From an uncultured Bacteroidota bacterium (GTDB taxonomy: Bacteria; Bacteroidota; Bacteroidia; UKL13-3), in assembly GCA_903850915.1 (NCBI GenBank), contig CAINMV010000034.1, positions 37 to 64,036 on the forward strand: a stretch of DNA of 64,000 nucleotides. The letters run 5' to 3'. Made by a program: the position numbers and the translations under genes. Each line of letters opens with the position of its first letter. The first letter of the stretch is position 1. Below the pieces are notes generated by a model. That model was not told where the DNA came from and did not search any database. It saw only the letters and a list, made by a program, of their open reading frames with translations. Shown piece by piece: positions 18,051-40,801 of the stretch.

Positions 18051-18286
18051 ATTTATGGTCAATACGGCCTGATTTTACAAATTAGTAGAATTAGAAACAA
18101 CGCTACAATGTAATGAGGCACAGTGGAGCTAAGGAAATGGGGCAGGTAAATAACGGAAATACCCCGAAAACTAATACAATAAGAGTCCGATAGTCAATTC
18201 AAGTTTTGATTAGAAATAATTTTCGTTTTCTTTGTAACTTGATTTCACTTACAAAAATTAGGTATCGTATGTTTAGCTCCATAATC

Positions 18287-21200
18287 ATGAGAAATTTTAA
18301 CGCTATAAGACTGGCTTCATTATTCATTGCATTCACGTTTATTTTTACGACTTCAATGAATTCGCAAATCAGCGTGAACTCCACCGGTGGTCAAACAAGT
18401 ACAACTACTTATGCCACATTAAAGCTCGCTTTCGACTCGATAAACGTTGGGAAGCATACCGGCTCAATTGTAATATTGGTTAACGGCAACACCACAGAAA
18501 CGGCTACCGCTGTTTTAAATGCATCAGGCTCTGGACTCGCTTCATATGCAGCAATTTTGATTAAGCCCTCCGGAGGTGGCTTGAAAACAATTGCAGGCTC
18601 ATTAGCAGCACCACTAATTGACCTCAATGGCGCTGATAATATCACCATAGATGGTTTGTATCCAGGTAACGATTCCCTCTTAATCGTCAATTCTTCTACA
18701 TCAACAGTAGCCAACACCTCTACGATTCGATTTATTAATGGCGCAACGAACAATAGCGTTCAAAATTGTGGTGTCCTTGGAGGTAGTGCATCCACAACAT
18801 CGGGCACTATTTTTTTTAGTACAGATGCATCCACCACTACTGGTAATGATAATAATCTTATTTCAAATTTACTGCTAGGAGATGCGTCAAGCGCAGCTAC
18901 ACCCCGTTATGCAGTTTATGCCTCGGGCACGCCAACGGCACAAAATAATTACAACACCATTAAAGGCTGTTGGATATATAATTTCAACTCAGGTACCACC
19001 GGCGACAGAGCTGGTATTTATATCGGCGCTGCCTGTTCTGACTTTACCATCTACAATAATAGTTTTTATCAGGAGACGAGCAGAAGTGTAAGCTCTGCCG
19101 TGTTTTCGGGCATATACATCACCAATACCTCTGGTAGTTTTTTAATACGCAAAAATAAAATTGGAGGAAGCGCACCAAACTGTGCTGGATCAGCACTTTC
19201 ATTGACATCCGCTCCCCTCTTACATGCAATTTACCTAAATGTAGCCTCCTCAAGCAAAACAATTGTGGATAGCAATACCATCGCAAATATTACAATGGCA
19301 ACATCAAACACTAGTATCATCCAATCCTTGATACACATAAATAATGGAAAGGTTGATTTAAAATACAATACCCTCGGAAGCCAAAGTACGGCATCGAGTA
19401 TTAGCATACCTACAAACCCAAGCAGCACTACCTTTTCAGTCATTGGAATGGGAGCTGGCACCTTTGACACCATAAATATCTCCAACAATACCATTGGCGG
19501 AATAAACATTACGGGATCGGGAATGAGCCTAAGAGGCGTGGATATTACAGGAACAACGGCAACAATGCTGATTAATAATAATATCTTTGGTTCGCCAACA
19601 GTGGCTAACAGCTTTTTTCAAGGAGGACCTAATTCCATTTTAGCGATAATAATGCGGGCTGATTATGCTGGTGCCATCCACCAAGTGATGAATAATACAT
19701 TTGCAAATTTTACAGCCACAAACGCAGCAATACGAGCAATTTATACTGGTGGAGCTAATTCTACATTTTTAATTACTGGAAATACACTTTACAACTTTAG
19801 CACGGCACGTAATACCGCTGGCACAGGCAATGGTGCGGCAATAGTTGGTATTATTGCTAGTGCTGGTGGGCCAAATCAAATAATCTCTAAAAATACAATA
19901 CACTCTTTAAAAGTTACAGGGTCGGGTGCTGGTGCAATGACTGTAAGTGGAATCAATTTTGGAGGTACTCCATCTGGTAATAATATAATCTCTAGTAACC
20001 TAATCCATTCCTTGAATGTGGATATCGCAGGTGGTGTAGTCAATGGAATCGACATCTCAGGAGCCAACGGAACATATTACAACAATATGATACGCTTGGG
20101 AATTGATGAACTTGGGGCTATCATTAGTACGCCAATAAGTATTAACGGAATTTATGAGAACGGAGGCGTAAACTCCATTTACTACAACAGCATTTATATA
20201 GGGGGCAGTAATGTTACTACAGGAACCGCCAACACTGCAGCTCTTAACAGCTCGGTAACTTCGGTGAATAGGGAAATAAAAAACAATATTTTCGTGAACG
20301 TAAGAAGCAACAGTTCATCCACTGGCAAGCACTATGCTATAGCTATTAATAACAATACGGGGCAAGTAATCAACAATAACGATTATTGGACTGGCAGTTC
20401 ATTCCTAGCTCAAAATAGCACTACAGATTACAGTTCATTATTAACTTGGCAAGCAGCGACCAACCAAGATAGCTTAAGTGTAAGCGCAAATCCTGTGTTT
20501 AAGAACCCGGGAGGAAGCATCTCAACATTAAATCTGCATATTGACACTGCCGGAACCGCCGTTTCCTATTTAGAATCGAGTGGCAGCGTAATTAGCGGAA
20601 TTGCAACCGACTATGATAATGACGCCCGACCAGGACCATTAGGAAGTTTAAAAGGTGGCGCTACCAAACCTGATATTGGTGCCGACGAATTTGATGGTGT
20701 ACCTCGGCCACCTTGTGCTAACTCCATTGCTGGCAATGCGATTGCAACGCTTGATACTATTTGTATAAGTGGCACTGTTACCTTAAGCTTAAGCGGTTCA
20801 TCCGGGTTAGGTGTTGGCAATAGCTACCAATGGCAATCGTCCTCCAATGGCATCAACTATTCGAACATTTCAAATGCGAATCTAAATGTATATGCCACTT
20901 CAAGTATTACCACTACGACTTATTATCGATGCATTTTAACATGCATCTACGGCGCAACGTCATCTATTTCAGGCGCAAAGAAAATCACCGTTTTAAATCC
21001 ACAAATATCAAGTACCCAAGGGGCTCAGCGTTGTGGAGCTGGATCTGTTGCTTTAAACGCAACTGCAAGTTCAGGCACTATCAGATGGTACAGTGCTGCT
21101 ACAGGTGGCGCTCTATTAGATACTGGAGCAATCTTCAACACACCATCAATTGCCACCACAACCACGTACTATGTAGAAGCGGCCATAGCAAATTGCGCTT

Positions 21201-22921
21201 CCAACGCACGCACCGCTGTGCAAGCAACCATATTAACGGTCCCTATAATCACTGGAATCACTCCAGGTTTTAGTTGCGGGCCTGGAATTGTTGCCTTATC
21301 GGCATCTTGCAGTGCTGGCACAATAAATTGGTATAGCACAGCTACTGGAGGCACTGCAATTGCAACAGGAGCTAACTTTAGCACCCCTTTGCTCAGTTCC
21401 ACAACAACATACTATATCGATGCTGTTTCAACAATTTGTACTTCTACATCCAGATCTGCCATTACCGCCACCATTATACCATTACCAACAATTACTTCAA
21501 CGACACCTTCAAATACTTGTGGTACCGGATCGGTTGTATTACGCGCAGCAGCAAGCAGTGGCTATGTAAATTGGTATTCGACAGCAACTGGAGGCACCGT
21601 AATTGACACCGGCAATACTTTTACCACGCCTGTTATTTTTGCGCCTACTACCTATTATGCCGAAGCTAAAGTAGGCAATTGTGTATCAAGCCCAAGAACA
21701 GCGGTTTTGGCATCCGTACTTTCTAAACCCACCATTAATGGAGTAAATAGCGCCACTGGCTGCAAATTCGATCAGATTGTACTTGGAGCAACGGCTTCGG
21801 CAGGAACTATCAACTGGTACAACAGCTCCACTGGAGGCATCTCAATTGCAACTGGCAATAGCTTCACAACACCAAGCCTTTCGGCAACCACAGTATATTA
21901 TGTTGATGCCACCGTAAGCGGATGCACCTCATTATTTAGGACAGCTGTTACAGCAACAATTAATCCAACACCATTGATTACGTCCGTAACCAATGCCTCT
22001 GTTTGTGGTTCAGGCGCGTTAACCTTGGATGCCGCTGCGAGCTCCGGCGTTATTAGCTGGTATAGCGACTCTATTGGAGGAACATTAGTATTTACGGGCA
22101 ACCCATTTAACACACCGATTTTAAACACCACCACGACGTATTTCGTTGAAACCAAAGACAATGGGTGCACCTCAAGTCCACGGGTTCGAGTAACGGCTAA
22201 GGTTAAAAAAATACCTACAATTACCACGACAACGCCCGCTTCAAGTTGTCGGCCTGCCATCTTAAGCTTAAGCGCAAATGCAAGCAATGGCAATATTCGT
22301 TGGTATAATGTAGCATTTGGTGGCAGTGCCTTAGCGAGTGGCTCAACTTTTACAACTCCTGTTCTATCAGCAACAGCAACGTACTATGTTGACGCCTTTG
22401 ACAGCGGCTGTGTTTCAGCCAATAGAACAGCAGTAGACGCTACCATTTACACAGCCCCGAACAAAAGTACCACTGTATTAGGAAATACGATTACAGCCAC
22501 TGCCACTGGCCTAATCTACCAGTGGGTGGATTGCAACAACAACTTTGCTTTGCTAACAGGAGAGACCAGCAAAAGCTTCACGGCCACTAAAAATGGAAGT
22601 TATGCCGTAATTGTAAAAGACAATAACTGCAGCGACACCTCTGCATGCACCACCTTTAACAAAATTGGTCTTCATAATAACATGCAAGATTTTGGATTCA
22701 GCTTAACACCCAACCCAGCTCAAGAACAGCTGTTTTTGATAACAAACATCACTTTACTTGGCAAAAAATTTACAATTTTAGATCTAACGGGCAGGATACT
22801 AATCGTTGGAACCATTAACCAGGAGATGCAAACAATTCCCATTGAGACACTCGCTTTTGGAAACTACCTCTTCCATATTGACGACGCCTATGGTAAGAAT
22901 ATTCGATTTATTAAAAATTAA
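18287..22921 (+). CDS. very large secreted T9SS cargo adhesin: N-terminal parallel beta-helix region, about 6-8 tandem Ig-like repeats, C-terminal T9SS sorting domain
   Basis: Signal peptide from the ATG at 18287. The first ~800 aa is Gly/Asn/Thr/Ser-rich with beta-helix-like repeats. An ~80-aa repeat (CGxGxVxLxAxASxGxIxWYxxATGG...TTTYYVxA...RTAV) is then reiterated. The last ~80 aa match a Por/T9SS C-terminal domain. Confidence 0.8.
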   Translation: MRNFNAIRLASLFIAFTFIFTTSMNSQISVNSTGGQTSTTTYATLKLAFDSINVGKHTGSIVILVNGNTTETATAVLNASGSGLASYAAILIKPSGGGLKTIAGSLAAPLIDLNGADNITIDGLYPGNDSLLIVNSSTSTVANTSTIRFINGATNNSVQNCGVLGGSASTTSGTIFFSTDASTTTGNDNNLISNLLLGDASSAATPRYAVYASGTPTAQNNYNTIKGCWIYNFNSGTTGDRAGIYIGAACSDFTIYNNSFYQETSRSVSSAVFSGIYITNTSGSFLIRKNKIGGSAPNCAGSALSLTSAPLLHAIYLNVASSSKTIVDSNTIANITMATSNTSIIQSLIHINNGKVDLKYNTLGSQSTASSISIPTNPSSTTFSVIGMGAGTFDTINISNNTIGGINITGSGMSLRGVDITGTTATMLINNNIFGSPTVANSFFQGGPNSILAIIMRADYAGAIHQVMNNTFANFTATNAAIRAIYTGGANSTFLITGNTLYNFSTARNTAGTGNGAAIVGIIASAGGPNQIISKNTIHSLKVTGSGAGAMTVSGINFGGTPSGNNIISSNLIHSLNVDIAGGVVNGIDISGANGTYYNNMIRLGIDELGAIISTPISINGIYENGGVNSIYYNSIYIGGSNVTTGTANTAALNSSVTSVNREIKNNIFVNVRSNSSSTGKHYAIAINNNTGQVINNNDYWTGSSFLAQNSTTDYSSLLTWQAATNQDSLSVSANPVFKNPGGSISTLNLHIDTAGTAVSYLESSGSVISGIATDYDNDARPGPLGSLKGGATKPDIGADEFDGVPRPPCANSIAGNAIATLDTICISGTVTLSLSGSSGLGVGNSYQWQSSSNGINYSNISNANLNVYATSSITTTTYYRCILTCIYGATSSISGAKKITVLNPQISSTQGAQRCGAGSVALNATASSGTIRWYSAATGGALLDTGAIFNTPSIATTTTYYVEAAIANCASNARTAVQATILTVPIITGITPGFSCGPGIVALSASCSAGTINWYSTATGGTAIATGANFSTPLLSSTTTYYIDAVSTICTSTSRSAITATIIPLPTITSTTPSNTCGTGSVVLRAAASSGYVNWYSTATGGTVIDTGNTFTTPVIFAPTTYYAEAKVGNCVSSPRTAVLASVLSKPTINGVNSATGCKFDQIVLGATASAGTINWYNSSTGGISIATGNSFTTPSLSATTVYYVDATVSGCTSLFRTAVTATINPTPLITSVTNASVCGSGALTLDAAASSGVISWYSDSIGGTLVFTGNPFNTPILNTTTTYFVETKDNGCTSSPRVRVTAKVKKIPTITTTTPASSCRPAILSLSANASNGNIRWYNVAFGGSALASGSTFTTPVLSATATYYVDAFDSGCVSANRTAVDATIYTAPNKSTTVLGNTITATATGLIYQWVDCNNNFALLTGETSKSFTATKNGSYAVIVKDNNCSDTSACTTFNKIGLHNNMQDFGFSLTPNPAQEQLFLITNITLLGKKFTILDLTGRILIVGTINQEMQTIPIETLAFGNYLFHIDDAYGKNIRFIKN
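20995..22450 (+). repeat. six clear tandem ~240-bp coding repeats (Ig-like domains) inside the adhesin gene, flanked by two more-diverged units (20700-20990 and 22450-22660)
   Basis: Repeat units begin near 20995, 21241, 21478, 21724, 21964 and 22207. Confidence 0.7.
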
Positions 22922-29173: not shown

Positions 29174-30394
29174 ATGTCACTCAACTTTTCAGACACCGAA
29201 ATCGCATTCAAAAGCAAAAGCAATGTCGCAATTAAAAAAGCAGCTTGGCTTTTTAAAAGCTTCAACTATCCTTTTATTGTTCAACAAGGGCCATTACTTG
29301 CGGCCTGGGCATTAAAATGGCATTTCCCATTTATTGGAAGCCTAGTTAAAGGCAGCATATTTAGTCAGTTTTGCGGTGGAGAAACCATTGAAGAATGCAG
29401 TAAAACGGTAAATTTTTTAAACCATTCCAATGTAAAATCTATACTTGACTACAGCGTTGAAGGAGAAGAAAACGAGTCTAACTTTGACCATACCTGCCGC
29501 GAAATCATTAGAACTATTGATGCTGCGCAGCAAAATTCAGCCATCGCCTTCAGTGTTTTTAAAACTACAGGTATTGTTAGAAATGCCTTGTTAGAAAAAT
29601 TAAATCCGAGCAGTGCTAAGATACTTGAAACCAAGAAAGCCCTAGAAATAAAAGACTACTCTTCGCTGTTAAGTCCCTTAGAATACAAGGAATGCGAGCT
29701 CGCTTTCACTCGTTTTTCATTGATTTGCGATGCCGCTGCAGCTGCCAACATACGTTTGTTTGTGGATGCTGAAGAAACTTGGATACAAGACACCATTGAT
29801 GCCTGGACTGAAGCCAATATGCGAAAGCACAACAAGGCCAAGGCCATTATTTTCAACACAGTTCAAATGTATCGCCACGACCGGGTAAAATACATGAAGA
29901 GACTTGTGGAAATGGGTGAAGACCTTGGATTCTATATCGGATTTAAAATTGTGCGTGGCGCCTACATGGAGAAAGAGAGAGAAAGAGCCTTGGTGATGAA
30001 CTACCTATCACCGATACAGCCTGACAAAGAACATTGTGACCGTGACTTTGATGACGCTCTGTTTTATTGCATTCAAAACTCAAAAGTCGCAATTTGCTGT
30101 GGCACACATAATGAAGAAAGCAGCTTAAAACTAACAAAATGGATGCAAGAAAAAGGCATCTCCAATAACGACGAACGCATTTACTTTGCACAGCTTTTAG
30201 GCATGAGCGACCATATCAGTTTTAATTTGGCTGCTTCAGATTATAATGTAGCGAAATACGTTCCATATGGACCGGTGCAAGCCGTGCTTCCTTATTTAGC
30301 AAGAAGAGCCCAAGAAAACAGCAGTGTAAAAGGCCAAGTTGGTCGTGAATTAAACCTTATTAAGAATGAATTGCAACGGAGAAATTCAAATTGA
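29174..30394 (+). CDS. proline dehydrogenase (monofunctional PutA-type)
   Basis: Proline dehydrogenase family pattern; 406 aa. Confidence 0.75.
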   Translation: MSLNFSDTEIAFKSKSNVAIKKAAWLFKSFNYPFIVQQGPLLAAWALKWHFPFIGSLVKGSIFSQFCGGETIEECSKTVNFLNHSNVKSILDYSVEGEENESNFDHTCREIIRTIDAAQQNSAIAFSVFKTTGIVRNALLEKLNPSSAKILETKKALEIKDYSSLLSPLEYKECELAFTRFSLICDAAAAANIRLFVDAEETWIQDTIDAWTEANMRKHNKAKAIIFNTVQMYRHDRVKYMKRLVEMGEDLGFYIGFKIVRGAYMEKERERALVMNYLSPIQPDKEHCDRDFDDALFYCIQNSKVAICCGTHNEESSLKLTKWMQEKGISNNDERIYFAQLLGMSDHISFNLAASDYNVAKYVPYGPVQAVLPYLARRAQENSSVKGQVGRELNLIKNELQRRNSN

Positions 30395-31659
30395 AGATAC
30401 AACTAACACCAACAGAGCTTGAATCCTTAACACATGCCTTGCCATTATGGAGCATGCAATTTGACTATGCTTGTATTTTAAACTCCAACCACTGTGCATC
30501 TGCCTGCGATTATGACACCTATGAAATTATTGCAGGTGTGGCGAATAAAGGAGCCGTAACCTATTCTGAATCGAATACCTTAAATTTTAATAACAAATGG
30601 CAGCTTGGTTATTTAGGCTATGAAAATCGCAATCATCTGCACGGCATAATTTCAAACAAACCGACAAAATCTGGATTCGATTCTAGTTTCTTTTTTGAGC
30701 CTGAGTTTTTAATTGCGATTAAAAAAGGCAGTTCGGAAGTTGAGGTTCATGGCAACCTTGAACTTTCAATTCAAGAAATTATGAGTTATCCTAAAGATTC
30801 TAACACAAATACGGAGGTAAAACTCACTGCGCGTGTCACCCGTGAAAATTATATTGACACCATAGAACAGATCAAAGAAAATATCATTAAAGGGACCTTT
30901 TACGAACTCAACTATTGCATGGAGTTTTACCAAGACGAAATTGAAATTAATCCAGGCTTGGTTTTTAATAAACTTTTATCCATTTCACCTACACCATTTG
31001 CATCGTTTTTTAAACATAACCAACAATTTTTAATGTGTGCTAGTCCGGAGCGTTTTATAAAAAAAACGTCACGTATAATTATATCACAACCAATAAAAGG
31101 AACCATAAAAAGAGGAAAAAACAAGGATGATGATGAGGCGTTAAAAACAAAGCTTAAACAAAGTGATAAAGAGCGCGCAGAAAACATCATGATTGTAGAT
31201 TTGATGCGGAATGATTTAGCACAATGTGCGCTAACCGGCACCGTGCGTGTGGACGAGCTGTTTGGCGTGTATACCTTTGCTACGGTGCATCAGTTGATTT
31301 CTACCGTCTCTGCCACCTTAGTGCCAGAGATTTCATTGCTTGAAATTCTAGATCACACCTTTCCCATGGGAAGTATGACTGGAGCACCCAAACGAGAGGT
31401 AATGCATTTTATTGCGCAAATTGAACCTACGGCTCGAGGTCTTTTCAGTGGAAGCGTTGGCTATGTTAACCCCAACAACGACTTCGACTTTAATGTCGTC
31501 ATACGCAGCATTACCTACAACCAAGACAACCGATACCTATCATGCCATGTAGGAAGCGCCATTACCTATGATGCTGATGCCGCTGCTGAGTATGAAGAAT
31601 GCTTACTTAAAGCAGAAACTATGTTTAAAGCATTGGACACCCATACTCCAAACCGTTGA
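30391..31659 (+). CDS. pabB: aminodeoxychorismate/anthranilate synthase component I family protein
   Basis: C-terminal chorismate-binding domain motifs. Overlaps the upstream gene by 4 nt. Confidence 0.75.
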   Translation: MKIQLTPTELESLTHALPLWSMQFDYACILNSNHCASACDYDTYEIIAGVANKGAVTYSESNTLNFNNKWQLGYLGYENRNHLHGIISNKPTKSGFDSSFFFEPEFLIAIKKGSSEVEVHGNLELSIQEIMSYPKDSNTNTEVKLTARVTRENYIDTIEQIKENIIKGTFYELNYCMEFYQDEIEINPGLVFNKLLSISPTPFASFFKHNQQFLMCASPERFIKKTSRIIISQPIKGTIKRGKNKDDDEALKTKLKQSDKERAENIMIVDLMRNDLAQCALTGTVRVDELFGVYTFATVHQLISTVSATLVPEISLLEILDHTFPMGSMTGAPKREVMHFIAQIEPTARGLFSGSVGYVNPNNDFDFNVVIRSITYNQDNRYLSCHVGSAITYDADAAAEYEECLLKAETMFKALDTHTPNR

Positions 31660-33462: not shown

Positions 33463-34158
33463 TTAATTCTCGTTTTGACTTTGGCCGATTTTTTCGAGTG
33501 CCATCTTATAAACAAGTTGAAATTGCTCATCGCGAGTTAGGTATGAATTATCAATTTCTATAGCATTGTCGGCCTTGGCAAGGGGGCTATCAATGCGAGA
33601 TGTATCAATTAAATCCCTGGTTTTTAAATTAGCGGCGACATCATCATAGTTGCCAAGAACACCTTTTGTTTGCATCTCATCGAGGCGTCGTTGTATACGA
33701 ACCTCATCATTAGCAACCATAAATATTTTCACTTCAGCATCAGGAAATACGACAGTGCCAATATCACGTCCATCCATTACTAAGGCTCTTTGGTCTCCCA
33801 TGATTTTTTGCTGATGCACCAAGAAACGTCGAACAGCACTAATAGCGCTAACTGGGCTTACAAAATTTGCAACACGCAACGTACGAATTGCGATTTCGCG
33901 ATCTTCGCCATTTAAAAAAGTGTCGGTTTGATTTGTATTCGGATTGTGCTTAAATTCAATGATAATATTATTTAGAGCTTCCTCAATGCTCTTTTCATCC
34001 TCAATATCAACATTGTTCTCTAAAAAATATAAAGTTACAGCGCGATACATCGCACCTGTATCGATATACCGATAGTTTAGGCTCGCTGCCAGGGCTTTTG
34101 CCAAGGTGCTTTTACCACAACCAGAGAATCCATCTATTGCTATTATAATTGATTTCAC
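33463..34158 (-). CDS. cmk: (d)CMP kinase; likely GTG start at 34158 (ORF-track ATG at 34227 adds 23 non-conserved residues)
   Basis: P-loop AIDGFSGCGKST sits right after the proposed start. It is a Cmk-family protein. Confidence 0.8.
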   Translation of the reverse strand: MKSIIIAIDGFSGCGKSTLAKALAASLNYRYIDTGAMYRAVTLYFLENNVDIEDEKSIEEALNNIIIEFKHNPNTNQTDTFLNGEDREIAIRTLRVANFVSPVSAISAVRRFLVHQQKIMGDQRALVMDGRDIGTVVFPDAEVKIFMVANDEVRIQRRLDEMQTKGVLGNYDDVAANLKTRDLIDTSRIDSPLAKADNAIEIDNSYLTRDEQFQLVYKMALEKIGQSQNEN

Positions 34159-34310
34159 GATGCGTTGCGAAGATAACTCAAATGTGCAGAATTGAAAACT
34201 CACAGTGAAAGAAACGTTGCCCTTCAAACAATTTATCTTTCAATTCTCCGTTACAACAACAATATTTCCCTTATTTTTGTCCAAATTCTATCCTGTTTCT
34301 CAACCTACAG

Positions 34311-35660
34311 ATGCATACCAATAAACTCGGGCAACCATTAATCATTGTTTTTGCCACCTTCCTGATTTTATTAGCATTATCTTTCTTAAAACCAACAATA
34401 ATTTTCGGCTATCAATTGAAGCCCGTGGAATTACTTTCAGAGATAACACCTACAGAAGTAAAAGCAGACACATTAGGCGTTCAGGATAGCACCCTCATCA
34501 TTAAAAAAGATACCGTAGTTCGTGACCTTTCCGACATTATCGACTATCGCAGCGACTCTGCGCTCCTGCGTTTTTTCACTTCACTGCAAAAAACCGGAAA
34601 AAGCAAACACCAAACCCGCATTGCTTATTTCGGCGACTCCTTTATTGAAGGCGATTTAATTACCCAAGACTTACGTGCATTACTGCAAGATAAATTTGGT
34701 GGTGGCGGTGTAGGCTATATGCCTATAACAAGTATAGTTGCTGGATTTCGACAATCTGTTTCACATACTTTTGGAGGTTGGCAAACATATTCCTTCGCTA
34801 ACGATCTACCCAAAAGCCATGGTTTATTTATTTCTGGATTCACATTCGTTCCAACATATAACGATACGATAGACTCTACTGCGAAACATAATGGGAGCTG
34901 GGTTACGTATTCCGCAGTTAACAAACCTCGCTTAAACTCCTTTGATAAAGTGCGACTTTTTTATGGCAATAGCAATGCCAATAATTATGGAACACTTAAT
35001 GGAATAAATTTTCCACTAAACGACTCTGGCATCTTTAATGAGCTAACCTTTAGAGGCCCCTTTAGCAGCGTAAATGCAAACTTCAATTGTAATTCAAAAA
35101 TTGACATCTTCGGGATGAGTTTAGAAAGCGATACAGGCGTTATTGTCGACAATTTTTCCTTCCGAGGGAATTCCGGATTGACAATGAGTAAAGTAGCGCG
35201 AGAACTCTACCGAGCCTCCAACGAAAAACTAACGTATGACTTAATAGTATTGGAGTACGGATTGAATGCCATTTCAGAAAAAGCCACTGAATACAAATGG
35301 TATGAGAAAGGATTTTCGACCATGTTGAAGTTTATTAAAACTTGTTACCCCAACACTGATATTCTGATTGTAGGACTAGGCGATAAAGCCCTTCGCGTGA
35401 AAGGAGTTTATGTGGAAGACCCGGCAGTGAAACAAATTTTAGCATTAGAACAGAATGTAGCCTTTGAAGAGCGATGTGCCTTTTGGAGCCTATATGATGC
35501 GATGGGTGGCGAAGGAAGTATGATTGCATGGGCCGACTCTATTCCGGCATTAGCGAATAAGGACTATACCCATTTAAACTTCAGAGGAGCAAGGCAAGTA
35601 GGGACATTGTTTTATGAAAAACTCATGAAGAAATATAACGAATTCAACACCCAACATTAA
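34311..35660 (+). CDS. SGNH/GDSL-family hydrolase-fold protein, N-terminal membrane anchor (candidate AlgX/AlgJ/PatB-like O-acyl transfer partner)
   Basis: Block I GDSF is present, with a C-terminal DxxH (DYTHL). It is the first gene of a tightly packed 5-gene + strand operon. Confidence 0.6.
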   Translation: MHTNKLGQPLIIVFATFLILLALSFLKPTIIFGYQLKPVELLSEITPTEVKADTLGVQDSTLIIKKDTVVRDLSDIIDYRSDSALLRFFTSLQKTGKSKHQTRIAYFGDSFIEGDLITQDLRALLQDKFGGGGVGYMPITSIVAGFRQSVSHTFGGWQTYSFANDLPKSHGLFISGFTFVPTYNDTIDSTAKHNGSWVTYSAVNKPRLNSFDKVRLFYGNSNANNYGTLNGINFPLNDSGIFNELTFRGPFSSVNANFNCNSKIDIFGMSLESDTGVIVDNFSFRGNSGLTMSKVARELYRASNEKLTYDLIVLEYGLNAISEKATEYKWYEKGFSTMLKFIKTCYPNTDILIVGLGDKALRVKGVYVEDPAVKQILALEQNVAFEERCAFWSLYDAMGGEGSMIAWADSIPALANKDYTHLNFRGARQVGTLFYEKLMKKYNEFNTQH

Positions 35661-35663
35661 TTC

Positions 35664-36890
35664 ATGTTCAAGAAATATATAAATCTTTTTTTGTTAATCG
35701 TGTCAGTCAATTTTGGGTTATTGGCTCAAACACCCGCGACGTCATATCCATTTATAAAAACGAGTATCAATCGAATTGAAAACGACAGCATTTATCTTCA
35801 AGATTTTTATGATAAATTATATCGCCTAAAAACACAAAATCATGGTGTTGTTCGTATTGTTCATATTGGCGACTCCCATATTCAAGCGGATATGTTAAGT
35901 GGTACTGTTAGACTAAATATGCAAGAACAATTTGGGAACGCCGGCCGTGGTTTAATATTCCCATACCGGGTAGCGAATACCAACGGGCCAAGCGATATTA
36001 CTTCGGGAAGTAACGTGCTATGGGCCGCTAAACGGAACGTTTTTTTCATGAATCCTATACCCATTGGAATCAGTGGCATAACAATTGAAACACACGCTGA
36101 AAATGCCTATATCTCCGAAAGTTTAGGCAACACCACAGGACGAGATTATAGCTTTAACCACGCCACAGTATTTTATCAACAAGGGCCCGATTTCTATGAC
36201 TTCTTGATTAGTGATAAAAGCGATGTTTCGGCCTTCGAACACGACTCTTGTTATTTCAGAAATAGTGTTACTTTTAACAGTATTATACCAGTAAATGCTA
36301 TTACCATTAAAACATTTTCGCAAGATACCTGCGTTCAAAAAACAGCTCGTTTGTTTGGCGTACTGCTTCAAAACGATAGCGCTGGCGTGCTTTACAATAT
36401 GGTTGGTGTAAACGGAGCAGAGTATCGTCATTATTTGGCTTCCGAATATTTTGCAGAGCAATTGAGCTTCCTTCAACCTGACCTCATCATTGTTTCATTA
36501 GGCACAAACGAAGCCATGAATGGCAATTTTAAAAGCGACGTATTTTATGAAACTATTAATCAAACAATAGAGGCCATAAAACAGAAGTCGCCCAACGCTA
36601 AATTTTTACTCACCACTCCTCCAGATTCTTATCGCTGGTATAACCGCAGACCGTACAAAAACATCAACACCAAAAAAGCAGCGGAAACTATTATCCGATA
36701 TTGCTGTGATAATAACATTGCATATTGGGATTTAAATTCCGTGATGGGAGGCTATGGAAGTATGGGATACTGGGCCAAATATGGCTTATCGGCTAGAGAC
36801 TACGTTCATTTTCAGCCAAAAGGCTATAAACTACAGGGCAACTTATTATATCAAGCACTTCTCCATAACTACAAGAAATATACCCGATAA
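35664..36890 (+). CDS. SGNH/GDSL-family hydrolase-fold protein, secreted (paralog of the preceding gene)
   Basis: Signal peptide present. Motifs GDSHI and DYVHF. It starts 3 nt after the upstream stop. Confidence 0.6.
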   Translation: MFKKYINLFLLIVSVNFGLLAQTPATSYPFIKTSINRIENDSIYLQDFYDKLYRLKTQNHGVVRIVHIGDSHIQADMLSGTVRLNMQEQFGNAGRGLIFPYRVANTNGPSDITSGSNVLWAAKRNVFFMNPIPIGISGITIETHAENAYISESLGNTTGRDYSFNHATVFYQQGPDFYDFLISDKSDVSAFEHDSCYFRNSVTFNSIIPVNAITIKTFSQDTCVQKTARLFGVLLQNDSAGVLYNMVGVNGAEYRHYLASEYFAEQLSFLQPDLIIVSLGTNEAMNGNFKSDVFYETINQTIEAIKQKSPNAKFLLTTPPDSYRWYNRRPYKNINTKKAAETIIRYCCDNNIAYWDLNSVMGGYGSMGYWAKYGLSARDYVHFQPKGYKLQGNLLYQALLHNYKKYTR

Positions 36891-36895
36891 AACAA

Positions 36896-38374
36896 ATGCT
36901 CGACCTTCATAAAATTGCATCACAATTAGTTTATAATAGCAAAGACCCTTTGTTATTTAACAGCGGTTTTTTCTTGATATTTTTTATTGTATTTCTATTC
37001 GGCTATCTTTTGGTTCACAAAAAACCCATGGTGCGAATATTATATTTCACCTTGTTTTCGTTTTACTTTTTCTACAAGGCTTGTGGGTTTTATTTTATAC
37101 TGATTCTCATTTCTGCTGTCGTCGACTTCACCCTCAGCAACTTAATTTATTCTGCATCATCAGATAAGAAAAAGAAAATACTACTCGTCATTAGTGTTAT
37201 TATCAACCTAGGACTTTTAGCCTATTTCAAATACACTAATTTCTTTATTGAGATAATAAATGATGTGACCAACGGCAATATTCAACCCTTAAAATTGCTT
37301 TTGCCAATTGGGATTTCATTTTACACCTTTGAAAACCTAAGTTACACCATCGATGTTTATCGAGGTAAATTCACACCCGTAAAAAGCTTCCTAGATTATT
37401 GCTTCTTTCTCTCCTTCTTTCCAAAATTAGTCATGGGACCCATTGTGCGCGCCTCGGATTTTATACCGCAAATACGAAAGAACATTTTGATTACTCCAGA
37501 ATATGTTAGTGGTGGGTTGTATTTGATACTTAGTGGATTATTTAAAAAAGTTGTGATAAGCGATTATATTTATGTAAATTTCGTTCAGTATATCTTCGAC
37601 GACCCATCTAGGCATTCAGGTATAGAATGTTTGCTTGGAGTTTATGGCTATGCAATGGTTATTTATTGCGATTTCTCCGGCTATAGCGATATGGCAATAG
37701 GCATTGCCAAGTGGGTAGGAATCGACATCAACATCAACTTTAATTCTCCATATCAATCGAGTTCCATCACTGAATTCTGGAGACGATGGCATATTTCCCT
37801 TTCGAATTGGTTGAAGGATTATTTATACATTTCTTTAGGAGGCAACAGAACGGGGAAATTAAGGCAATATCTTAATTTAATGATTACGATGTTACTCGGT
37901 GGATTGTGGCACGGTGCAAGTTTGAATTTTGTTGTTTGGGGTGGCATGCATGGTCTTGCTTTGGCATTAGACAAACTAAAACACCAATGGATGTTGCGAT
38001 TGCCAGTGGGATTTCAGAATTCGAAATCAATTAAACTGCTTGGTGTCCTATTTACCTTTCATTTCGTTTGTTTTTGTTGGATTTTTTTCAAGGCCTCTTC
38101 CTTTTCCGATGCGCAAATAATATTAAGTCAAATTGCATTCAACTTTAATGGCGCAGCTGCATTTACTCTGCTTAAGGCGTATCTGCCCGTTTTCCTTATT
38201 TTACTTCTCGCCTATTTATTACATGCAATACCGAGCCGATTTGAATCTAAATCTATTGATTTTCTCACACAGATGCCTCTTGTTTTTAAGATAGCAATAA
38301 CAGTATTTGTTGTTTGGATAGTTATTCAAAGTAAACAAGCGGAAGCCGTAATGCCCATTTATTTGCAGTTCTAA
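36896..38374 (+). CDS. MBOAT-family membrane-bound O-acyltransferase (AlgI/DltB/PatA-like)
   Basis: Multi-TM protein with the conserved MBOAT His region (WRRWHISLSNWLKDYLY...GG...WHG). Confidence 0.85.
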   Translation: MLDLHKIASQLVYNSKDPLLFNSGFFLIFFIVFLFGYLLVHKKPMVRILYFTLFSFYFFYKACGFYFILILISAVVDFTLSNLIYSASSDKKKKILLVISVIINLGLLAYFKYTNFFIEIINDVTNGNIQPLKLLLPIGISFYTFENLSYTIDVYRGKFTPVKSFLDYCFFLSFFPKLVMGPIVRASDFIPQIRKNILITPEYVSGGLYLILSGLFKKVVISDYIYVNFVQYIFDDPSRHSGIECLLGVYGYAMVIYCDFSGYSDMAIGIAKWVGIDININFNSPYQSSSITEFWRRWHISLSNWLKDYLYISLGGNRTGKLRQYLNLMITMLLGGLWHGASLNFVVWGGMHGLALALDKLKHQWMLRLPVGFQNSKSIKLLGVLFTFHFVCFCWIFFKASSFSDAQIILSQIAFNFNGAAAFTLLKAYLPVFLILLLAYLLHAIPSRFESKSIDFLTQMPLVFKIAITVFVVWIVIQSKQAEAVMPIYLQF

Positions 38375-38390
38375 TTGCTAAAAAAACTTT

Positions 38391-39173
38391 ATGCCTGCAA
38401 ACACTACATCACCAAGTTATTTCGACAATTTTCAATTGAATTTATGCGCTATAAATGGCCTAAACTTGAGATTTCGATTTAAGGCAGCTAACCTTATTAT
38501 ATTTTGCCTCGCATTTTGGAGCACTTCATATTCTCAACAAAACAAAAAAATTGAATTGCAATTCAATCCAACATTCAAACGTCAATCATTAGCGCTCGAC
38601 TCCATTTATTACCATCTCAACCAAACCGATAGTGTACAGTTTACGGTGCTCAAGTTCTACATATCCAACATCTCTCTTTTCGCAGATAGCCAACTCGTTT
38701 TTAGAGAAGAAAATAGCTTCCATTTAATTGATGCCTCTTTAAAAGGAAGTTTGATGCTCCCCCTTTCGGTACCGCAATCAGCCTTCTTTAATACCATTAA
38801 ATTTAATTTAGGTATCGATAGCACTACGAATGTTTCAGGGGCATTGGAAAACGACCTTGATCCGACAAAAGGCATGTATTGGACTTGGCAGAGTGGCTAT
38901 ATTAATTTTAAATTAGAAGGGAATAGCAACCAATGTAAAACCAGAAAAAACGAATTTAAATTTCATTTAGGTGGTTACTTAGCACCCTTTGAGGCTCTAA
39001 GAAAAATAACATTACCAGTGCAGCATAACGATTCAATTAGTATTGACTTTCCTTTAGATTTGTTTCTCTCTAAATTAGATTTATCTGTGGAGAATGAGGT
39101 AATGATTCCAGGCTATAAGGCGATGTTGATTGCCACTAAAGCTGCGGCAGAATTTAAATCGGACACACCATGA
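38391..39173 (+). CDS. small periplasmic protein, possibly MbnP-like partner of the downstream di-haem peroxidase (tentative)
   Basis: 4-nt overlap (ATGA) with the CCP gene. The signal-peptide-like segment begins ~25 aa after the annotated ATG; an in-frame TTG at 38466 would give a canonical signal peptide. It is Trp-containing with no known catalytic motif. Confidence 0.45.
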   Translation: MPANTTSPSYFDNFQLNLCAINGLNLRFRFKAANLIIFCLAFWSTSYSQQNKKIELQFNPTFKRQSLALDSIYYHLNQTDSVQFTVLKFYISNISLFADSQLVFREENSFHLIDASLKGSLMLPLSVPQSAFFNTIKFNLGIDSTTNVSGALENDLDPTKGMYWTWQSGYINFKLEGNSNQCKTRKNEFKFHLGGYLAPFEALRKITLPVQHNDSISIDFPLDLFLSKLDLSVENEVMIPGYKAMLIATKAAAEFKSDTP

Positions 39174-40213
39174 AAAAAAAGACAAGCATAATTGCATTTA
39201 TACTATTAGTTATAACCTTCGGTTTCCGTGTTAATCACACACCTGAATTCCCCACTCCCAAAGGCTGGCCATTGCCACAATACGATTTCAGGAAAAACCC
39301 ATTAGATTCAAAAAAGATTGAATTGGGAAGAATGCTATTTTATGATCCGATTCTTTCGCGCGACAGCAGTATCTCTTGCACAAGTTGTCATTCGCAATAT
39401 AGCGCATTTACCCATGTTGATCATGCCCTTAGCCACGGCATTGATGGAAAAATTGGAACCCGGAATTCGCCTGCTTTAATGAATTTGGCTTGGGGGAAAA
39501 GCTTTATGTGGGATGGCGCGATAAACCACCTCGACATGCAAGCATTGGCACCCATCTCAAATACGTTAGAGATGGACGACAACATAAAAAATGTAGTATT
39601 CAAATTACAGCGGTCGGCAATATATAGTACGCTTTTTTATACGGCATTTGGGGTAAAAAAAATCCAAGGAGCCCATGTTTTGAAGTCACTCTCGCAGTTT
39701 ATGTTAACTTTGGTAAGTTCAAATTCCAAATACGATAAGATGAAGCAAGGTGCCATAAAATTTACAGAAGCCGAACATCGAGGATATTTGCTATTTCAGA
39801 ACCATTGTTCTAGCTGCCACAAAGAGCCACTTTTTAGTAATTATCAATTTGAAAACAACGGATTGCATTTAGATGACTCCCTTTTAGATATTGGTCGGAT
39901 GCGAGTAACGCAACATGCTGTAGATTCATTGAAATTTAAAGTACCCACGCTGCGAAATATAGAATTCACCTCGCCCTATATGCATGATGGCCGATTTCAA
40001 ACCCTAAATCAGGTGCTAAACCATTATATCAAAGGCATTATGCCTTCTTCAACGCTCAGCGGTATATTAAAAAATGGCATTAATTTAAGCCCGAACGAGA
40101 AAGCAGATGTAGTGGCCTTCCTCCTCACACTGTCGGATAAGGAGTTTGTTTTCAACCCTCAATTCAGCTATCCAAAATCGTCTTTTCAAAAAAACCTAAA
40201 ACAGGCAGATTGA
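39170..40213 (+). CDS. di-haem cytochrome c peroxidase (CCP/MauG/MbnH family)
   Basis: Two CXXCH sites (CTSCH, CSSCH). Signal peptide present; 347 aa. Confidence 0.85.
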   Translation: MKKKTSIIAFILLVITFGFRVNHTPEFPTPKGWPLPQYDFRKNPLDSKKIELGRMLFYDPILSRDSSISCTSCHSQYSAFTHVDHALSHGIDGKIGTRNSPALMNLAWGKSFMWDGAINHLDMQALAPISNTLEMDDNIKNVVFKLQRSAIYSTLFYTAFGVKKIQGAHVLKSLSQFMLTLVSSNSKYDKMKQGAIKFTEAEHRGYLLFQNHCSSCHKEPLFSNYQFENNGLHLDDSLLDIGRMRVTQHAVDSLKFKVPTLRNIEFTSPYMHDGRFQTLNQVLNHYIKGIMPSSTLSGILKNGINLSPNEKADVVAFLLTLSDKEFVFNPQFSYPKSSFQKNLKQAD

Positions 40214-40225
40214 AAATTTAGTAGC

Positions 40226-40801
40226 CTATCTAATTTTCATCCCATCGTTAAAACACGAGCGACAACGAGGCTCATAACTTTCTTTTTCACCCAACAGCAC
40301 CGTGTTATCACTCTCTACGAGGCGGAATGAGTGGGTGGCAAAATCACCACAACGCATACAAATAGCATGTACTTTGGTAACAAATTCCGCTTTCGCCATT
40401 AGAGATGGCATCGGACCAAAAGGCTTGCCTAAAAAATCCATATCCAATCCGGCAATAATAACACGAACCCCTTTATTCGCTAAAGCTTCACAAACATCAG
40501 GAAGGCCTTCATCAAAAAACTGCGCTTCATCGATACCCACCACATCCACATTGGCTGAGATTAAAAGTAAATTCGAAGAAGAATTAATCGGGGTTGACTT
40601 AATACTATTGGCATCATGAGAAACAATTTGCACGTCATCGTAGCGCACATCGAGTGCCGGCTTAAAGATTTCAACCTTCATATTCGCATACTGGGCGCGC
40701 TTTAAACGTCGTATTAATTCTTCTGTTTTACCGGAGAACATAGATCCACAGATAACTTCTATCCATCCTTTAGGTCCGGCTTTTCGTGGTTCTAAAAACA
40801 T
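40226..40801 (-). CDS. tdk: thymidine kinase
   Basis: P-loop GSMFSGKT and a C-terminal zinc ribbon (CxxC...CxxC). Confidence 0.9.

Follow-up and report, generated by a model that had tools for sequence, protein, structure and literature searches.

A Bacteroidetes-type O-acetylpeptidoglycan cluster beside an MbnP/MbnH pair in an uncultured Bacteroidota bacterium: probably two independent periplasmic modules

Two described kinds of periplasmic system come closest to a cluster of five same-strand genes in a 64,000-nucleotide stretch of contig CAINMV010000034.1 (the whole of which we call the window), from an uncultured Bacteroidota bacterium. The first is the O-acetylpeptidoglycan (OAP) cluster ape1b-ape1c-pat, which was described in B. 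thetaiotaomicron, B. fragilis and P. gingivalis (Weadge, Pfeffer & Clarke 2005, PMC1199599). Peptidoglycan O-acetylation in Bacteroides was measured at 27–69% (Weadge et al. 2005, PMC1199599) and is given as 56–66% in a 2024 review, and the data on whether 6-O-acetylation of MurNAc depends on the cluster in Bacteroides are correlative only (PMC1199599). PatA was shown to acetylate its own invariant Tyr in the C-terminal FxYxxF motif, from which PatB then takes the acetyl group (Anderson et al. 2025, PMC12148441). The second system is the MbnP/MbnH pair, in which MbnH converts a Trp of the WxW motif of MbnP to kynurenine, and kynurenine, His and Met together form a copper site (review, PMC11951088). 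Such pairs have been known since 2013 to be conserved far beyond methanobactin operons (PMC3621798) and are on record from other copper operons as well.

Genes 1–3 of the window encode two SGNH proteins (SGNH1 and SGNH2) and an MBOAT acyltransferase; genes 4 and 5 encode an MbnP-like protein and an MbnH-type, MauG-like di-haem enzyme. An earlier reading of the sequence (the original prediction) had listed the same five plus-strand genes, and its coordinates and spacing agree with the open reading frame (ORF) positions. Its domain calls (SGNH, SGNH, MBOAT, MbnP and a MauG/MbnH-type di-haem protein) were all recovered by profile searches, which confirms that the five genes are real and were correctly typed. 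That prediction went on to treat the acylation genes and the redox pair as one coupled system. We instead assign a probability of roughly 0.8 to the cluster being two independent, known periplasmic modules that a lineage-specific rearrangement has made same-strand neighbours, with no new combined system. Three things computed here carry this reading: the families to which the proteins belong, their catalytic motifs, and the conservation of each module on its own. Had acylation and oxidation been fused in one system, it would have made a novel kind of machine for modifying the envelope; the evidence speaks against this and removes a false lead.

Conservation of the two modules in relatives

We scanned two collections for relatives of the modules. 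Each scan listed 80 loci (from at least 80 relatives), and all counts out of 80 refer to the listed loci. The MbnP scan was alignment-based, with one genome per GTDB species, and its relatives, at 40–57% identity, come from Chitinophagales, Saprospiraceae, Sphingobacteriales, Flavobacteriales, Ignavibacteria and others. In 78 of 80 species the MbnP gene has an MbnH-like gene directly after it on the same strand; in the remaining two loci the contig ends. Relatives of the window's MBOAT or SGNH genes were detectable within 10 kb of MbnP in a single locus (L067), 68 of the loci having at least 1.6 kb of upstream DNA. The usual neighbours are of another kind. Clustering of neighbouring ORFs across the 80 loci places an extracytoplasmic function (ECF) sigma-70 factor (30 loci), a 157-residue Metal_resist/LTXXQ-like protein (35 loci) and a transmembrane protein of 91–98 residues upstream of MbnP/MbnH, and a YHYH-domain protein with a type IX secretion (T9SS) tail downstream (56 loci); multicopper oxidase, P-type ATPase and redoxin genes are less frequent individually, and one of these or a sulfatase gene is often there as well. 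The three closest MbnP homologues in a large protein collection (52–57% identity) have this same neighbourhood and no MBOAT gene.

The conserved MbnP/MbnH neighbourhood looks like a copper or envelope-stress regulon. Examples from Bacteroidota are L167:4411-9156, L009, L014 and L021 (among L001–L080), and we found no description of the Bacteroidota neighbourhood in the available literature under MbnP/MbnH, YHYH, PF14240 or PF20243. Genes for YHYH, ECF sigma, LTXXQ, multicopper oxidase, P-type ATPase and redoxin proteins were not found in the 64-kb window.

The MBOAT scan covered metagenome loci with MBOAT relatives at 48–79% identity. An SGNH gene lies upstream of MBOAT in all 80 listed loci, and where there is enough upstream DNA to judge (60 loci) two SGNH genes stand in the window's order in 44 and a single one in 16. 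No MbnP/MbnH or MauG-like gene was found beside MBOAT in any of the 80, gut Bacteroides included, 61 of them having at least 2 kb of downstream DNA. In the closest MBOAT relatives with sufficient DNA downstream (71–73% identity), rpmB, an aminopeptidase gene (pepP), rpmG and ftsY come after the trio; the contig of a third relative, at 73%, stops just past MBOAT. The nearest relatives of either module are without the other. Contigs that carry an identical MbnP protein do have the identical five-gene layout, which marks them as the same species and nothing more.

Conservation of all five genes across Bacteroidota was the check that the original prediction had proposed. When run, it showed the modules adjacent in one of 80 MbnP loci and in none of 80 MBOAT loci. 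Related genomes do not keep the five genes in synteny, an outcome that the prediction itself had named as refuting, and the idea of a fused system fails this check. On the two-module reading, neither module would require the other.

Packing, transcription and a second adjacency

Successive ORFs of the cluster are spaced by 3, 5 and 16 nt and then overlap by 4 nt (Table 1), and minus-strand genes for cytidylate kinase (cmk) and thymidine kinase (tdk) bracket the five. Such spacing is common here. Gaps of 20 nt or less separate 12 of the 33 same-strand neighbour pairs in the window, where coding density is ~90%, so the close packing of the five genes says little about shared function and is weak evidence for a functional unit. 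Functionally unrelated proline dehydrogenase and chorismate-binding enzyme genes at 29174–31659 overlap by 4 nt if the TTG at 30391 is used as a start; close packing in this genome need not mean shared function.

Table 1. Features of the five-gene locus, in window coordinates
Feature	Position	Strand	Basis or remark
Candidate Bacteroidota-type -7 promoter box, TATTTTTG	34272-34279	+	TAnnTTTG match, 32 nt before the gene 1 ATG; consensus match only
SGNH1, membrane-anchored Ape1b-like SGNH protein, 449 aa	34311-35660	+	Ape1 alignment, N-terminal anchor
SGNH2, secreted Ape1c-like SGNH paralogue, 408 aa	35664-36890	+	PF13472, Ape1 alignment
PatA-like MBOAT acetyltransferase, 492 aa, with C-terminal acyl-shuttle Tyr motif	36896-38374	+	PF03062
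Junction between the modules	38375-38465	+	16-nt gap plus 25-codon extension (ATG 38391), or 91-nt spacer (TTG 38466)
MbnP-family periplasmic protein	38466-39173 (235 aa, TTG) or 38391-39173 (260 aa, ATG)	+	PF20243
MbnH-type (MauG-like) di-haem enzyme, 347 aa	39170-40213	+	PF03150, TIGR04039

A scan with the sigma-70 consensus returned 19 sites against 23.6 in shuffled sequence and is unsuited to Bacteroidota, so the TAnnTTTG box was used instead. In a pattern scan of 34100–40300 the box before gene 1 is the only intergenic match on the plus strand, and the spacer at 38375–38465 contains none. No terminator is predicted inside the five-gene cluster. Together these make read-through of MbnP/MbnH from the OAP promoter plausible, and in this species the pair would probably be transcribed in that way. 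Even if real, co-transcription alone would be no sign that the genes work together.

A second adjacency is found in L067 and L172, which belong to the same species. Here (L172:1340-10278) an SLT/LysM gene, two SGNH genes and an MBOAT gene lie on one strand, and 27 nt past the MBOAT gene follow, on the same strand, genes for an ECF sigma factor, an anti-sigma-like protein, an LTXXQ-like protein, MbnP and MbnH. The L067 MBOAT is of a different, 560-residue subtype with 38% identity to that of the window. Relatives of L172 at 78% and 72% MBOAT identity (L173 and L174) keep the order SLT, SGNH, SGNH, MBOAT and have unrelated genes downstream. The OAP trio and MbnP/MbnH have become neighbours at least twice, independently, and each time at the level of a species.

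This second case bears most directly on a regulatory link within the lineage, the alternative that survives best and one that we nonetheless hold to be unlikely. MbnP/MbnH would have lost its control by an ECF sigma factor and been captured by the O-acetylation operon, giving useful co-expression with no shared chemistry. The absence of the usual ECF sigma, LTXXQ and YHYH partners from the whole window fits such a capture, although these genes may simply sit beyond the 64 kb; the single strand shared by all five genes, with no predicted terminator between them and no box in the spacer, fits it too, although small gaps between unrelated genes are frequent in the window. The independent juxtaposition in L067/L172 is set against an adjacency seen in none of 61 informative MBOAT loci and one of 68 informative MbnP loci, and absent also from the relatives of L172 at 72–78% MBOAT identity. 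It is because of L067/L172 that we keep a small probability on the regulatory link. Finding the same modules head-to-tail twice makes selection for co-expression possible, but we think it quite unlikely that selection sometimes favours expressing peptidoglycan O-acetylation together with an MbnP/MbnH copper or oxidative-stress module. If it did, modification of the cell wall and copper handling in the periplasm would be tied together through selected co-expression in some Bacteroidota.

Several points weigh against two independent modules of known function. One is the adjacency in L067/L172 itself: by a rough, marginal and post hoc estimate, ~130 informative loci would hold one or more extra adjacencies by chance only 3–6% of the time. 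A second is that no canonical box precedes MbnP, so that the pair does rely either on transcription from upstream or on a promoter that escaped recognition. Third, a Pfam search gave no PatB/DUF459 match in SGNH1 or SGNH2, and we infer which of the two is the transferase. Fourth, we found no genetic tie of any Bacteroidota OAP cluster to peptidoglycan O-acetylation in the literature read. Finally, the chemistry of the locus is predicted here from its sequence.

The O-acetylpeptidoglycan cluster

The MBOAT gene product matches PF03062 (E=3e-27) and contains the conserved motifs RWH (H299) and LWHG (H339). Its C-terminus is PIYLQF (window 38354–38371), which includes Y489 and a terminal Phe, and the same tail is present in 120 of 120 homologues (P0121–P0240). 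The MBOAT orthologues of gut Bacteroides, as well as the L067 MBOAT, end in FIYFQF instead. With PIYLQF as the tail in this clade, the published FxYxxF motif is not invariant at its first Phe.

Both SGNH proteins have the peptidoglycan O-acetylesterase Ape1 (4k3u) as their top solved relative in a search of the PDB, with the unnamed SGNH esterase structures 8gkd and 8gld next. SGNH1 has only a weak Pfam SGNH match (27 bits, under the gathering score), and its residues 77–438 align to N. meningitidis Ape1 with E=4e-17 in a full-length alignment. It keeps the GDS motif (S110), the Gly of block II, the Asn of block III and DYTH (418–421), and a long hydrophobic anchor occupies residues 4–36. SGNH2 matches PF13472 (Lipase_GDSL_2, E=2e-17), aligns to Ape1 in two stretches either side of an inserted domain (E=4e-21) and keeps GDSH (S71), GVNG, GTNE and DYVH (379–382). 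Signal-peptide-like N-termini are found in SGNH2, the MbnP-like protein and the MbnH-type enzyme. SGNH1 and SGNH2 are 24% identical. In both of them the GDS block lies ~150–200 residues N-terminal of the remaining fold, which matches the domain that is inserted into the SGNH fold of Ape1 (PMC9487903).

The order of genes 1–3 is that of ape1b-ape1c-pat. Given the Ape1 matches with intact catalytic residues, the PIYLQF tail and this published gene order, genes 1–3 are best filed, from their sequences, as a member of the Bacteroidetes-type OAP cluster, a kind already described. The original prediction was right that the trio follows the MBOAT–SGNH logic of PatA/PatB; in its present form the trio is already described, as the cluster reported in 2005 (PMC1199599). 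As in the published clusters, one Ape1-family SGNH protein, a second Ape1-family SGNH protein and an MBOAT are encoded in that order, and the first SGNH protein may be membrane-anchored, as was noted for the P. gingivalis family 1 protein. The window copy differs in coming from an uncultured, non-gut Bacteroidota lineage, in its MBOAT tail (PIYLQF rather than the FIYFQF of Bacteroides) and in having MbnP/MbnH behind it, a feature that the published clusters do not share.

The cluster is very widely conserved. Hundreds of MBOAT homologues at ~70% identity are found in Bacteroidota and in metagenome-assembled genomes (MAGs), making MBOAT much better conserved than MbnP, and orthologues in Bacteroides and Phocaeicola (human-gut loci whose proteins are so named by NCBI) have 52% identity and the same gene order. 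The cluster is without a PatB-type transferase; Ape2 and PatB are also missing from the Bacteroidetes type of cluster that Weadge et al. described (2005, PMC1199599).

Which SGNH protein hands on the acetyl group is an issue that has stood in the available literature since 2005, and synteny points to the membrane-anchored, Ape1-like paralogue as the transferase. In about a dozen of the 16 single-SGNH relatives that were read, the gene is in each case closer to SGNH1 than to SGNH2. Retention of an SGNH1-like copy alone suggests that SGNH1 is the obligatory partner of MBOAT. From its membrane anchor and the copy kept beside MBOAT, SGNH1 is likely to be the acetyl acceptor and transferase partner, and SGNH2 is likely to be an O-acetylpeptidoglycan esterase. 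Several single-SGNH loci carry an SGNH2-like gene downstream on the opposite strand (for example L096, L102, L120, L127, L142 and L150, within L081–L160).

The Neisseria and Campylobacter PatA-PatB-Ape1 systems (PMC12148441; 4k3u, 4k40) share with the window the conserved His and C-terminal shuttle Tyr of the MBOAT, an SGNH partner with a Ser-His-Asp triad and an Ape1-like esterase with a domain inserted in its SGNH fold. They differ in that the window has no PatB/DUF459 transferase, both of its SGNH proteins being Ape1-like, and in that its genes stand in the opposite order, the SGNH genes preceding MBOAT. AlgI/AlgJ/AlgX similarly combines an MBOAT with two periplasmic acetyl-handling proteins, one anchored in the membrane and the other soluble, and uses the logic of a C-terminal Tyr shuttle. 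The window differs from it in having no PF16822 match, no AlgF and no alginate synthesis genes, and its SGNH proteins resemble Ape1 rather than AlgJ or AlgX. An AlgI/J/X-type system was accordingly rejected, there being no AlgX-family match and the flanking genes being cmk and tdk. A DltB/D-type system was rejected as well: DltC and DltA are missing and the DltB model stays under its cut-off.

By analogy with PatA/PatB and Ape1, we infer the chemistry, the substrate and the division of labour between SGNH1 and SGNH2. In module 1 (34311–38374), acetyl groups would pass from cytoplasmic acetyl-CoA to the PatA-like MBOAT, which would auto-acetylate Tyr489 of PIYLQF on the periplasmic side. The GDS serine of the anchored SGNH1 would take the acetyl group from MBOAT and place it on the C6 hydroxyl of MurNAc in peptidoglycan, and soluble SGNH2 would strip O-acetyl groups at sites where lytic transglycosylases must act.

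That the trio acylates some other polymer (exopolysaccharide, capsule or lipopolysaccharide), in the manner of AlgI/J/X or WssH/I, seems to us decidedly unlikely. The PatB/DUF459 domain is absent, and JGI annotators call homologues 'AlgI' or 'DltB'; yet both SGNH proteins have a peptidoglycan O-acetylesterase as their top structural relative, a Pfam search found no match to the AlgX/AlgJ family PF16822 in either, and no polysaccharide-synthesis genes adjoin the trio, which sits among housekeeping genes at ~70% identity across hundreds of Bacteroidota. Bacteroides peptidoglycan is, moreover, heavily O-acetylated. In one Flavobacteriales-like clade an SLT and LysM lytic transglycosylase gene lies directly upstream of the trio (L172:1340-2815, L173:2766-4301 and L174:2742-4301), a conserved neighbour that supports peptidoglycan as the substrate.

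The MbnP/MbnH pair

The gene 4 product matches PF20243 with E=1e-40 (140 bits against a cut-off of 27 bits). Sequence and profile searches against the PDB gave no match, 7l6g included, so its membership of the MbnP family is shown by Pfam and by a fold search. In the latter, the sole significant PDB matches of its AlphaFold model (pLDDT 86) are six chains of MbnP 7l6g (E=8e-7 to 9e-6, probability 1.0, TM 0.47–0.50). The HMM search and structure prediction that had been proposed for the 260-residue protein thus both return MbnP. In an alignment of 33 homologues, W164-T-W166 (the WxW motif), M162 and H192 do not vary. By their conservation, M162 and H192, together with the near-invariant H111, are candidate copper ligands. 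The loop that bears WxW is modelled at low confidence. The protein had been described as Trp-rich, whereas it contains three Trp (1.2%), two of them in WxW.

MbnP homologues are ~230 residues long, and in the same alignment they begin, with their initiator Met, at L26 of the window ORF, the codon TTG 38466. The protein probably starts there, judging from this alignment, and the MBOAT–MbnP spacer is then 91 nt rather than the 16 nt given originally. Starting at ATG 38391 likely adds 25 spurious residues, and TTG 38466 gives a normal signal peptide (MRFRFKAANLIIFCLAFWSTSYS); the start codon of gene 4 was probably miscalled by automatic annotation.

The MbnH gene overlaps that of MbnP by 4 nt, an arrangement of translational coupling. 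Its product matches CCP_MauG (PF03150, E=2e-51), its best NCBIfam model is TIGR04039 (the MbnH family) and its best PDB match is MbnH 6e1c (E=1e-39). Two CxxCH motifs are present, CTSCH at 70 and CSSCH at 213. Y286 aligns with Tyr294 of MauG and with a Tyr of MbnH 6e1c and is invariant in 76 of 76 paired homologues, and alignments to canonical peroxidases end just short of this position. Tyr294 is the axial Tyr ligand of MauG, where ordinary bacterial peroxidases have Met. This Tyr and the universal MbnP partner speak against an ordinary peroxidase, and that candidate was rejected. Both proteins score below the NCBIfam equivalog thresholds, gene 5 at 213 against 363 bits (TIGR04039) and gene 4 at 44 against 140 bits (TIGR04052, MbnP), which on sequence grounds places them in a divergent Bacteroidota subfamily.

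Genes 4 and 5 read, by sequence, as an ordinary MbnP/MbnH pair, and the gene 4 product is likely, by analogy, to be a copper-binding protein and the substrate of the MbnH-type enzyme. Two further points of the original prediction hold: the last two genes form a pair of MbnP/MbnH type, whose small protein is most likely modified by the MauG-like enzyme, this being the known function of such pairs, and no TonB-dependent transporter is encoded at the locus. The reference pair of Methylosinus trichosporium OB3b (7l6g, 6e1c) is likewise adjacent and translationally coupled; it shares the MbnP Pfam family, fold and WxW motif, and a partner with two CxxCH motifs and a Tyr at the MauG-type ligand position. 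The window MbnP has ~13% structure-based identity to 7l6g, however, and the window has neither a methanobactin operon nor the TonB-dependent transporter MbnT, while the pair of Bacteroidota relatives travels with ECF sigma, LTXXQ, YHYH and multicopper oxidase genes. In module 2 (38466–40213), on the model of the Methylosinus pair, a high-valent haem that MbnH derives from peroxide would oxidize one Trp in the WxW motif of MbnP to kynurenine, and this kynurenine would create a periplasmic copper site.

The first proposal, a redox-controlled or oxidatively matured surface modification in which genes 4 and 5 would work on the acylation machinery or on its polymer, is very improbable, because the adjacency, seen in the window species and in L172 only, is set against an MbnH that is paired with MbnP in 78 of 80 species among copper-type neighbours, a trio without a MauG-like gene in 80 of 80 MBOAT loci, gut Bacteroides included, and a PatA/PatB mechanism that requires no oxidant.

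Elsewhere in the window, tRNA and Rfam scans returned three tRNAs only, none of them close to the five-gene locus, and a very large plus-strand ORF of ~1550 residues occupies positions 18269–22921.

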